Shown: positions 36,001 to 39,000 of the stretch, piece after piece | Layout of the letters: the number at the start of each line of letters is the position of its first letter | How positions within the stretch are numbered: position 1 is the stretch's first letter | Source: a plasmid | DNA length: 64,000 nucleotides | Direction: 5' to 3' (one strand) | NCBI RefSeq assembly: GCF_988243305.1 | Contig: NZ_OZ547138.1 | Program-made: the position numbers

Positions 36001-39000
36001 AGCAGCGCATTCAGTGCCCGGTGCCACTGGTCATTAACGGACCAGACGGGGAGGCGTTTGTTCAGTGCCGGTATGGCAGCGTTCTGTTGCCGGAACTGCC
36101 AGCCGGGTGGCAGCAACGGGCGTATCCAGTCACTGACGGAGCGCTGACGTGCCTCACGTAAATAAACGACGGATGACTGACCGGGTTTACCGGTCATAAC
36201 CAGTGCGGGCAGCTGTGTGGCCTGAAGGAGCGGGCGGGGAGGCAGTGCGGTACTCTGGCTGCTGACTGCGGTTGTGGGCGTCGCTGTTGTTGTCGGGCGG
36301 GGCGGCGTCACAGGGCGGGTCACCGGTGGCGGAAGCAGACGTTTTTGCGTATGGGCGATAATGGCAGCGCTTTCGCGAATTTGTCCGTCGACGAACACCA
36401 GAGCCGGAGGCGTGGTGTCAGGAACAGGCGTGGCATTAAAGGCCGTACAGCCGCTGAGTAATGACGGCAGAAGGAGTGTAAGTGATTTCTTTTTCATAGA
36501 ATAAATCCGGTATGTATCGGGTTACGGTATAAGACAGGTGGCTGGTAACAGGTCTTCAGATAAATATAATATCATCAGGATATTGATGATGAACATTCAT
36601 GTTCGGGGTGATTATGAAAACTAAAACATTCCGGTTCCGGAAATATAAAAAGAAAAACGTCCTGCTGCAAATAATAGTTTCCAGGAAACAAGTGATATTG
36701 TTACGCAATATTATGACGGACTCTTTATTGTTTTGCTCGATAGGTTTTGTGTTTATGAATATGTGTGATTCAAAATATACGTTGATTTCTGGTGAGGGTG
36801 GTTTACGTGCTGATTGTGCCGATTATTTATTCTTTGCCGTATATGCAATTGCGTTGCTAATGATAATTTTATGGATGACAGCTTCAGTTATTTATTCTAT
36901 TGAAGAATATACGAGTCAGGAAAAATACGGTAAAAGTAAAGTCTATAGTTACTTCTGGTTTTTTATCTGGTTTTTTGTTTTTAACTGTGCTGTTTATTCT
37001 TCTCTGAAGGCAATAAATATAAAAGATATAATCAGCTAATGGCAGCAGAGGGATTCACGATAAAACCAATGACGTAACCTGTTCCCGAGCAATAAAGGAC
37101 TGTTGCCGGGGATGTTTTTCGTGTATCCCATATCTTTGAATCTGTATCAGATGGCGTGTGTTCAATGACCGATAAACTGGCCGGAATGGTCGTGTTAAAA
37201 AAAATACTTAACGCGCCTGTAAATAAAGCAGCGGGAAGAGAAATGCTGGAATGATATATCCATGTGGAGAGTATCAGTGCCAGAATAGCATTTCCTGTAT
37301 TTATATAATAAAACCAGTCGTTATGGCGCAGATACCGGGTAACGGAGAGCCCCCTGGCGGACACGCCATCCGGGAAATGCAGCGCCAGAAGTAGGAGATA
37401 AATAACTGCTATTTCAGCCAGTGTAACAGGCAGCATAATGGAAAGACGTGACAGGAATGACATCAGCATGTCACTTATGACAGGATTAAGTCGTGTTGAA
37501 GATAATTCGTAAATGCCGGTTGTAAAACAGAACATATAACCCAGTCCGGCATAAGCAATAATGGAAACCGGCGTCAGTTTGTTTGATTTGTATGTTTTAT
37601 ACGTTCTCGTTGCTTCTTTAATGGTTAAAATTGTCAGCAGGGATGTGAGAATCATAACGGGTGGTATATATATGCAGATATATACCTGCAAAGGGTACTC
37701 AGTATCGTATACCCGGGTTGTTAATATAACGGACAGACTCAGTAAGGATATATTTCCGAAATGAAACCAGCGATACTGTTGAAGATACTGGAAAACAGTG
37801 ATGCCTGAAGAAAATGTCCATTTGCCGCGAGCATAAATAACAACCCAGAATAAAGAACTAATGATACATACCATCAGTATGCCGGGTAATATTGCAAAAA
37901 TAAATGATGATGTGCTCATTATTAAATCTCCATCAGCATGGTGATGCTTAAATTTTTACGGTTGTGAGGTGCGTAATAAATATCATGTGTAGTTGTGAAT
38001 AATAGCGTCAGCAACATATATAAAAATAATCTGCATTCCTGAAAAATATCGTGGTTGTGAAATATTTAATTTTTACCCCCTTTTATGGGGGATGAAAAGC
38101 AGGCTGTCAGGCTATAACTGAACGCGGTTTCTGGATTTTGGTGCTAATGTCACATCTTTCCATTCACAGCTGCTTCCGGGGATACGCTCTTTGCGTCGTA
38201 TTATACGGGAGTTCTGACACACAATAATTAAGCCATTGTCTGCCGTCTGAAATGGCATTATAGCGATGTTTATATCTTCTGTTGCAGGAATATAACTGAC
38301 TTTCTTTTCACATGTATTGGTGTATATGACAACTCTGAATTTTTCTGCGGACATTTTCAATCCTCTTTTAAACCAGAATATCCCGTGAGGGCATTCTTTG
38401 TGAAAAAGATGCCGGAAAAATTCCGGCACGGGGATTAAACCTGTTGTGGTTCTGAGTTATCCGGAGCGGTTACCGGTTCGCTGACATCCGGAACCTTTTC
38501 CGGGGCAGGCATGACCAGTGGACGTGTCAGGGCTGTAAGTCCTTCACCGGATAAACCCACCTCTTTCAGCAGGGAGTCGATGAGCGGAGCCTGTGTACGG
38601 TAAGCCAGAGCGGCGGTTACTGCCTGTTCAGCGAGATTTCCGCCACTTATGTCGGTTGTTGCTGTTTTACCGCGGGTAACACCGCCATTCAGACCATCCA
38701 CCTGAATGATTTTAATACCGTCAATGGATTTCATTGGTTCTGTGGACTTCTCTATGACGGCAGGTAATGCATCCAGCAGGGCAAGACGGAAGCGGAGGCT
38801 GGTCTGCTCATCCGAAAGCACGTTAATGGCATCGTTCAGTGCGCGCTGTGCTTCTGCTTCTGCCAGACCTTTCTGACGGGTGGCCTCCGCCAGTTCAATA
38901 ATTGCTGCTGCCTGGAGTTCGGCTGCTTCTTTTTCAGCCTGTGCGCGAACCGTCAGTTCAACCGCTTTCGTTTCAGCTTCCTGAGCAGCAGCAATCAGGG

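Follow-up and report, generated by a model that had tools for sequence, protein, structure and literature searches.

Within the 64,000-nucleotide stretch of plasmid DNA analyzed here (the window; contig NZ_OZ547138.1 of assembly GCF_988243305.1), an AT-rich islet with two convergent genes for membrane proteins lies at 36498-38111, between the genes pilI and pilL of a thin-pilus (type IVb) operon. We find that a cassette of two genes, optional and exchangeable, occupies a hypervariable AT-rich slot between those genes, and that this islet is one of its alleles. We tentatively read the pair, at a probability of about 45%, as an accessory tied to the pilus operon, dispensable and specific to its lineage. 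New here are the duplicated unit from which one of the proteins is built, its conserved partner, the two alleles and the modular slot.

Over this region the window is 100% identical to the E. coli plasmid p1-S1-KEN-03-A (NZ_CP145695.1), whose annotation coordinates from 83030 onward correspond to the window coordinates, and its source is an I-complex (IncB/O/K/Z-type) conjugative E. coli plasmid. The thin-pilus operon occupies the minus strand and comprises pilI and pilL, M, N, O, P, Q, R, S, T, U and V, with pilL as the first core thin-pilus gene downstream of the islet.

Two convergent genes in an AT-rich islet

An earlier note on this DNA had described a low-GC stretch with two convergent open reading frames (ORFs) beside pilL, and both ORFs are present. 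The GC fraction of 36498-38111 is 0.378; on one side pilL-pilO has 0.562, and the DNA on the other has 0.535. The codon-usage scan that the note had suggested agrees with this, with a GC content at third codon positions (GC3) of 0.35 and 0.41 for the islet genes and 0.59-0.64 for pilL-pilO. The AT-rich tract continues past the islet through pilI to about 38400. When the islet was shuffled 2000 times an ORF of at least 295 codons never arose and one of at least 141 codons arose in 1.3% of shuffles. The ORF lengths in the islet are beyond chance expectation.

Gene B (37032..37919, minus strand) is co-oriented with the pil operon and encodes a polytopic membrane protein of 295 aa, predicted to reside at the inner membrane. 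A GGAG ribosome-binding site is located 8 nt ahead of its ATG. Gene A (36614..37039, plus strand; RefSeq CDS WP_243053132) encodes the partner protein, and the stop codons of the two genes overlap by 8 bp (TCAGCTAA). The plus-strand ORF had been described as 146 aa long, which corresponds to 36599-37039; the ORF and its convergence with gene B are confirmed, and the start at 36599 is doubtful. The ATG at 36599 is out of frame in related alleles (pE16, L015) whereas that at 36614 is conserved, so that a start at 36614, which is also the RefSeq start and gives 141 aa, is more probable. The gene A product has a basic N-terminus (11 K/R in 32 residues) followed by three predicted transmembrane (TM) helices, and hydropathy indicates that both islet products are polytopic, as had been proposed.

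Downstream of gene A a hairpin followed by a T-run (37084..37119, plus strand) forms a candidate intrinsic terminator for this gene, lying inside the 3' coding end of gene B. RNA folding of 36960-37150 gives z = -2.0, with a stem CCCGAGCAA...TTGCCGGGG followed by ATGTTTTT. All 36 of its 36 nt are invariant in four long alleles that are 3-8% divergent elsewhere.

The two-repeat architecture proposed for the 295-aa protein is borne out. Its halves are 25% identical over 97 residues (E = 2e-8), with a Smith-Waterman z = 8.1-11.5 and a score that was reached in none of 1000 shuffles, including ones made within 10-residue windows that keep the pattern of TM segments and loops. Unit 1 comprises residues 1-150 (37470..37919, minus strand) and unit 2 residues 151-295 and the stop codon (37032..37469, minus strand). 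A 143-aa protein encoded in the same slot of IncK2 plasmids corresponds to a single unit and is 28% identical to each half; it aligns to unit 1 with E = 6e-13 (shuffle z = 11.5-17.4) and to unit 2 with E = 1e-9 (shuffle z = 8.9-14.3). By these alignments the 295-aa protein consists of a 4-TM unit duplicated in tandem. The islet has no direct repeats at the DNA level, so the duplication must be an old one; repeats such as would flank a mobile element are lacking as well. The 143-aa unit has four clear hydrophobic segments by hydropathy; only five segments rise above the hydropathy cut-off in the 295-aa protein, for which eight TM helices are deduced by aligning both halves to the 143-aa unit. 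The unit is marked by a motif [QR]YL..xWF[HY][FY]xN ahead of TM2, a K/R-rich loop between TM3 and TM4, and an "NP" at its end. The number of units varies, from a protein of 143 aa to one of 295 aa, and some plasmids have three units. Homology between the 4-TM unit and the gene A product was also tested, and rejected.

Alleles, slot fillings and exchange of the cassette

The slot between pilI and pilL is filled in several ways, as described here from the representatives fetched. In the window type it contains the plus-strand gene and the 295-aa gene. pDW54_2 has the same pair with 873 bp inserted at 38023, carrying an 81-aa ORF and a 111-aa soluble Cys-rich gene, and pE16EC0406-2 has the pair with the remnant of a third unit and a 115-aa gene. 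In Logan contig L015 a 295-aa gene is accompanied by an 86-aa TM ORF and by a complete unit gene of 143 aa. Only the 111-aa gene, together with the first ~90 nt of the plus-strand gene, is found in KP77, p67_75 and pCT, and the slot of pO113 has no ORF whatever. Lastly, IncK2 plasmids (pDV45, pE15-3 and others) have a 131-aa plus-strand gene and a minus-strand unit ORF of 143 aa (L008:2116-2547, and the same place in L002 and L012-L014).

The IncK2 allele has the same architecture, position and orientation as that of the window, but with a single 4-TM unit in place of the fused pair, and its unit ORF abuts the stop of the partner where the window has the 8-bp overlap. Its 131-aa protein is 33-35% identical to the gene A product, with 39 invariant residues and the TM pattern retained. 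The cassette layout, in which a unit with the motif faces a convergent partner with LLR..MTDSLL.CS.G.VF between pilI and pilL, is found in the window and equally in loci L002, L008, L009, L010 and L012-L015. The plus-strand ORF, regarded in the earlier note as unexplained by the operon, is therefore no anomaly: two widely diverged alleles both conserve it as the partner of the unit gene.

The boundaries of the exchanged DNA are well defined. On the left is the pilL leader (36498..36613), the divergent intergenic region between pilL and gene A; these 116 bp are 93-99% identical across all slot types, and they include a perfect TATAAT. Homology runs as far as 36597 with the IncK2 allele, 36615 with pO113 and 36702 with plasmids of the KP77/pCT type. 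On the right, the spacer between pilI and the 295-aa gene (37920..38111) contains a junction near 38023. Related plasmids hold an extra 0.7-0.9 kb at about this point, with the 111-115-aa Cys-rich gene, and in pairwise blastn homology to KP77, pO113 and pE16 restarts here; homology to the IncK2 and L015 alleles restarts only at 38131, in the last codons of pilI. Comparing the window with IncK2, dS is 0.14 for pilL, while the partner gene is saturated, with dN = 0.67. Two alleles that are 28-35% identical thus lie inside a backbone that is 93-99% identical, with sharp breakpoints at 36597 and 38131, and this argues for exchange of the cassette by recombination in the conserved flanks.

Several other features of these loci were observed. 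The IncK2 131-aa gene contains a G6 run (GAGGGGGGATGG) at codons 'SEGGW' (L002, L008 and L012-L014), and several variants in the protein database (P0036, P0042, P0043 and P0045) are frameshifted exactly there. Either on/off switching by strand slippage or errors in sequencing the homopolymer could account for this; the run is absent from the window allele (GAGGGTGGT). The 143-aa IncK2 gene has no feature in the PLSDB gene table for the IncK2 records fetched, a table that is incomplete, so that the gene may be annotated in the original records; the identical protein sequence is encoded on at least 1000 contigs in public assemblies. The soluble Cys-rich orphan of 111-115 aa (MRTITTREQ...CPVCF...) is the commonest slot occupant beside pilI in IncB/O/K plasmids (L005, L007 and L017, which are KP77, p67_75 and pCT, and L009 at 3637-3972), and it has no Pfam match. 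The window lacks this gene, with a deletion junction near 38023. A 17-nt inverted repeat (94% complementary) links 37437-37453 in the 295-aa gene with 38148-38164 at the 3' end of pilI, where the rough chance expectation for the region is ~0.01.

Occurrence and selection

Among 5,426 complete E. coli genomes, 368 have the DNA that flanks the islet, as do 466 plasmids of PLSDB; only about one in ten of these carries the islet. The islet core (36703-38022) was found in 45 of the 5,426 genomes at 47 places, all 47 of them on plasmids, and it is always whole, with at least 80% of the query covered at every place. In PLSDB the 295-aa gene and the plus-strand gene of the long allele have 50 records each, and the two genes of the short allele about 101 and about 99. 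The two genes are strictly co-inherited and constitute one unit of inheritance.

For the long allele dN/dS is 0.38 for gene A and 0.30-0.37 for gene B, in each case the lowest of the six frames; neighboring pil genes have values of 0.06-0.24, below both. Given dN/dS values of 0.3-0.4, the strict co-occurrence, and frames that stay open across alleles 28-35% identical, we take both genes to be real; these substitution patterns mark them as protein-coding and under moderate purifying selection.

By database comparison both genes are orphans confined to these plasmids. Neither the window proteins nor their IncK2 homologues have a significant match in Pfam, NCBIfam, PADLOC or PHROGs; in PADLOC neither the window proteins nor the IncK2 partner match even at E <= 1. 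A profile search of the PDB gave no match at E <= 10, and tblastn against phage genomes gave none. A word-indexed search of 5.8 billion proteins returned only copies from E. coli and Enterobacteriaceae. When 1.84 billion cluster representatives were searched exhaustively by hmmsearch, the unit profile gave seven matches, comprising the 295-aa and 143-aa families, their fragments, the read-through of a remnant unit of pE16 type (P0117), and one spurious match to a repetitive 2189-aa protein. The cluster of the 295-aa protein has 712 members, from Enterobacteriaceae only; of the 15 members listed, 12 have the full length of 295 aa.

A proposed dispensable accessory of the pilus operon

It is important to the interpretation of the pair that a plasmid with the same pil backbone manages without it. 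The slot of pCT (IncK1) has only the 111-aa gene, and its PilL is identical to that of KP77 (WP_000730430), the pilL region of which has 99% DNA identity to that of the window. Knockout of pilS in pCT lowers mating in liquid (PMC4083329), and since inactivation of this gene reduces conjugation the thin pilus of pCT must work. The pair is therefore unlikely to be an essential PilK substitute.

A link with the pilus is argued from the fact that the pair stays only in the pil operon across saturated divergence; this residence, combined with frequent loss that does not disable the pilus, favors a dispensable accessory role. In the scheme that we propose, gene B would be read within the pil transcript, starting upstream of pilI and dependent on TraB/TraC, on which the pil transcript of R64 depends. 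Gene A would be transcribed toward gene B from its own promoter, which probably lies in the conserved pilL leader, and its transcript would end at the conserved hairpin in the 3' end of gene B, so that the two transcripts would be partly antisense to each other. Both products would be present together in the inner membrane of pilus-expressing donor cells, where they would modulate the thin-pilus system or protect the cell, without being a structural part. The cassette would be swapped or deleted through recombination in its conserved flanks.

A number of points weigh against this scheme. The pair is missing from most plasmids of this backbone (flanks in 368 genomes, core in 45), and since pCT has a functional thin pilus without it any role in the pilus is non-essential; the pair could be unrelated cargo. 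A gene that runs against the direction of the operon is unusual for an assembly factor. Some copies of gene A carry a frameshift (L015 and IncK2 variants). The scan for promoter and terminator consensus sequences gave no enrichment over shuffles, which for the promoter counts against transcription of gene A from the leader. AlphaFold2 (AF2) models of both products are all-helical and of low confidence, with pLDDT values of 48.6 for gene A and 34.5 for gene B. Finally, expression, membrane insertion, interaction of the two proteins and an effect on the pilus are all predicted only.

The alternative that survives best, though we think it unlikely, sees the pair as a self-contained module for exclusion, immunity or addiction, made up of two co-evolving membrane partners and with no role in pilus assembly, that merely lodges in a permissive AT-rich slot; examples would be a membrane toxin with its membrane antidote, or an inner-membrane block to the entry of phage or DNA. 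TraS of the F plasmid and the immunity genes of pore-forming colicins share traits with such a module. Alleles of 28-35% identity in a 93-99% identical backbone, in which the partners have diverged together, are typical of specificity or immunity determinants, and strict co-inheritance, small hydrophobic products, convergent overlapping ends, the optional presence of the pair and a pilus that works without it speak for this view as well. Against this, nothing in PADLOC, the Pfam colicin-immunity families, NCBIfam, PHROGs or phage genomes matches the pair, and unlike mobile defense or toxin-antitoxin cargo it is never found outside the pil slot. The dN/dS of 0.3-0.4 gives no sign of positive selection. 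Moreover, the I-complex already has exclusion by ExcA/TraY, and excA is present in pCT and R64.

Relation to R64 PilJ and PilK

The earlier note had suggested that the 295-aa protein could be the inner-membrane PilK equivalent. As regards slot, strand and predicted location in the inner membrane this holds: the 295-aa gene lies between pilI (38112-38354) and pilL (35427-36497) on the pil strand, which is the slot occupied in R64 by pilJ (150 aa) and pilK (196 aa). As regards homology it does not, and as regards essentiality the indirect evidence from pCT argues against it. High identity to PilK, which the note had named as counting against its view of the islet, was not found. BLASTP and tblastn of the window proteins against R64 PilK gave nothing below E = 1, and the best BLASTP E-values against R64 PilJ were 0.2-0.5, for hydrophobic segments only. 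The probability from hhalign for the unit family against the PilK family was 0.5%, and all PilK/PilJ comparisons gave 0.5% or less. Shuffle z-values were -1.1 to 0.3 for the 295-aa protein against PilK, and about 0 for PilJ/PilK overall. A PilK profile found R64 and ColIb PilK and R64 TraD by hmmsearch, and nothing in the window below E = 0.86. BLAST, hhalign, shuffles and the PilK profile thus reject homology of either window protein to PilK or PilJ.

The architectures differ too. R64 PilK has two N-terminal TM segments and a hydrophilic section at residues 65-196, a soluble domain of ~130 aa, and R64 PilJ has two TM segments and a soluble tail, whereas the 295-aa protein consists of two 4-TM units with short loops. 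Both R64 genes lie on the pil strand with no opposite-strand partner, while the window pair is convergent. What the two gene pairs share is a low GC content (37% in R64 and 38% in the window), the status of orphans in one lineage, and hydrophobic segments, which in PilJ and PilK are N-terminal. Since the R64 slot is also AT-rich, at 37% GC, the compositional shift belongs to the slot and not to the window plasmid, and the earlier view of it as an anomaly in the operon falls away. The content of the slot is variable within IncI1 as well; the pESBL gene table has PilK directly before PilI, with nothing listed between.

It is improbable, in our judgment, that the 295-aa protein is a non-homologous functional replacement for R64 PilK (or for PilJ plus PilK) that the thin pilus needs. 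Its slot and strand are those of pilJ/pilK, it has a good ribosome-binding site, co-transcription with pil is expected, and it is a predicted inner-membrane protein; PilJ and PilK too are AT-rich orphans, with N-terminal TM segments, and R64 pilK is reportedly among twelve genes required for the thin pilus. Set against these are the lack of any sequence or profile similarity and the other architecture, the identical PilL of KP77 and pCT, both without the pair, and the empty slot of pO113. In contrast to R64 pilK, the window pair appears dispensable in its own backbone. The pCT pilus promotes mating in liquid (PMC4083329), and related type IVb operons in general lack pilI, pilJ and pilK (PMC3984277; PMC9045228).

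Further candidates and relationships were noted in this comparison. That the 295-aa protein might be a type IV pilus platform protein (GspF/PilC/PilR) was rejected, there being no T2SS-F match to it and no Pfam match at E <= 0.1; the T2SS-F protein of this operon is the annotated PilR at 27575-28675. R64 PilK (45693-46283 in the R64 locus, L003) and TraD (47350-47916) are paralogues: BLASTP aligns 180 aa of them at 27% identity with E = 3e-15, and a search with the PilK profile matches R64 TraD at 2e-15. The window has neither PilK nor TraD. R64 PilJ (L003 46333-46785) has a weak PADLOC match to RTasSLATT, a membrane effector model of SLATT type (E = 0.0024), which may reflect similarity of TM composition only.

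Action through RNA, and other alternatives

The plus-strand unit might act mainly at the level of RNA or transcription, damping or gating pilL-pilV in the manner of an excludon, with the protein secondary; we regard this as quite improbable. Gene A is antisense inside the operon, and the 534 nt from the gene B stop to pilL hold no pil-strand ORF of more than 50 codons. The 8-bp overlap of the gene ends and the conserved hairpin inside the opposing gene would fit such a function, as would the fact that KP77/pCT-type plasmids, which have lost the remainder of the plus-strand gene, still keep its first ~90 nt and the leader. The protein is, however, conserved across saturated DNA divergence, in its 39 invariant residues, its TM pattern and a dN/dS of 0.38, so that selection acts on the coding capacity. 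Moreover, the promoter scan was without enrichment, and an Rfam scan of 35500-39000 gave no match at E <= 1.

A more elaborate proposal, which we offer as a long shot, has the pilI-pilL slot as a nursery of short hydrophobic proteins arising from AT-rich DNA. The pair would then be a two-component, allele-specific inner-membrane module, co-expressed with the thin pilus and shielding pilus-bearing donors, for example by keeping I-pilus-specific phages or unwanted DNA from crossing the inner membrane. Its specificity would have diversified into alleles 28-35% identical, and it would have expanded by duplication of the unit.

It is very improbable that the ORFs arose by chance in AT-rich DNA, or that they are remnants which are decaying or have lost their function. 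In favor of this view, they are orphans without homologues outside the plasmid group, are often deleted, exist in frameshifted copies and are under a constraint that is relaxed relative to the pil genes. Against it, their lengths exceed chance, both frames have stayed open although the alleles share only 28-35% identity, the annotated frames have the lowest dN/dS, at less than 0.4, and most of the listed database members are full length.

Neighboring genes of the operon

pilL (35427..36497, minus strand) encodes a lipoprotein with a TcpQ domain (Pfam TcpQ, 1.7e-16; RefSeq annotation), which is 43% identical to R64 PilL. On the other side of the islet, pilI (38112..38354, minus strand; 80 aa from the ATG at 38354; Pfam PilI, 2.6e-31) forms the right boundary of the cassette and is AT-rich like the islet, with a GC3 of 0.40. 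It is absent from the RefSeq (PGAP) annotation of NZ_CP145695.1, and is recognized by the PLSDB annotation and by Pfam. The longest pilI ORF would start with GTG at 38429 and give 105 aa; because this overlaps a terminator-like hairpin the ATG at 38354 is the likelier start. That hairpin (38429-38409, minus strand) lies just before pilI, after the stop of a flotillin gene.

The flotillin (SPFH/Band 7 plus Flot) gene and a YqiJ/NfeD-like gene occupy 38435-40776, between a traC-like gene and pilI, in the place of R64 traD. This pair is kept in some backbones, and is absent from pDV45, p67_75, pCT and R64. Farther upstream a 221-aa gene (41043-41708) lies in the traC position, and a NusG-like gene (41849-42490) is the counterpart of the NusG-family gene just upstream of R64 traC (TraB in the pESBL gene table). 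Between pilP and pilQ the window has two hypothetical genes at 30282-31528, encoding 198 aa (GC 0.43) and 184 aa, with no significant Pfam match; in R64, by contrast, pilQ follows pilP directly. At 24116-24310 only an internal fragment of the shufflon recombinase gene rci is present, annotated 'integrase, incomplete', and the C-terminus of PilV in the window plasmid is probably frozen in one configuration.

Significance and comparison with known systems

I-complex plasmids (IncI1, B/O, K and Z) are major carriers of resistance genes for extended-spectrum β-lactamases (ESBL) and AmpC, and of virulence genes of Shiga toxin-producing E. coli (STEC), and their thin pilus controls how they transfer in liquid and in the gut. 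The "pilJ/pilK" position of these plasmids is an exchangeable AT-rich slot with unrelated, lineage-specific small proteins, not a fixed gene pair, and gene names based on R64 are not transferable to IncB/O/K/Z plasmids. The pilI-pilL slot is a convenient typing marker, and the pair offers a small genetic target with natural null alleles for accessory tuning of the thin pilus, exclusion and phage sensitivity. Should the pair have no measurable effect, it would still illustrate how orphan genes turn over, and duplicate internally, within a plasmid operon.

Two known systems invite comparison. TraS of F-like plasmids is a small, very hydrophobic inner-membrane protein encoded in the transfer operon. 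It is hypervariable between otherwise conserved plasmids, and to our knowledge has no homologues outside its group. One gene, lying on the operon strand, encodes TraS, and TraG contains the variable region that is its partner. In the window, by contrast, the genes are two and convergent, and no part of the pil or tra machinery was identified as a variable counterpart. On enterobacterial plasmids, the genes for immunity to pore-forming colicins encode small inner-membrane proteins with 3-4 TM segments, from the opposite strand and convergent with their neighbor. No Pfam or NCBIfam immunity family matches the islet proteins, and no colicin or lysis gene lies beside the pair. Its neighbors are instead pilL, pilI and the flotillin gene, and the opposing gene itself encodes a polytopic membrane protein. 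We regard the pair as a new, uncharacterized filling of a slot already known to vary; the chance that it hides a module of the exclusion or immunity type is small.

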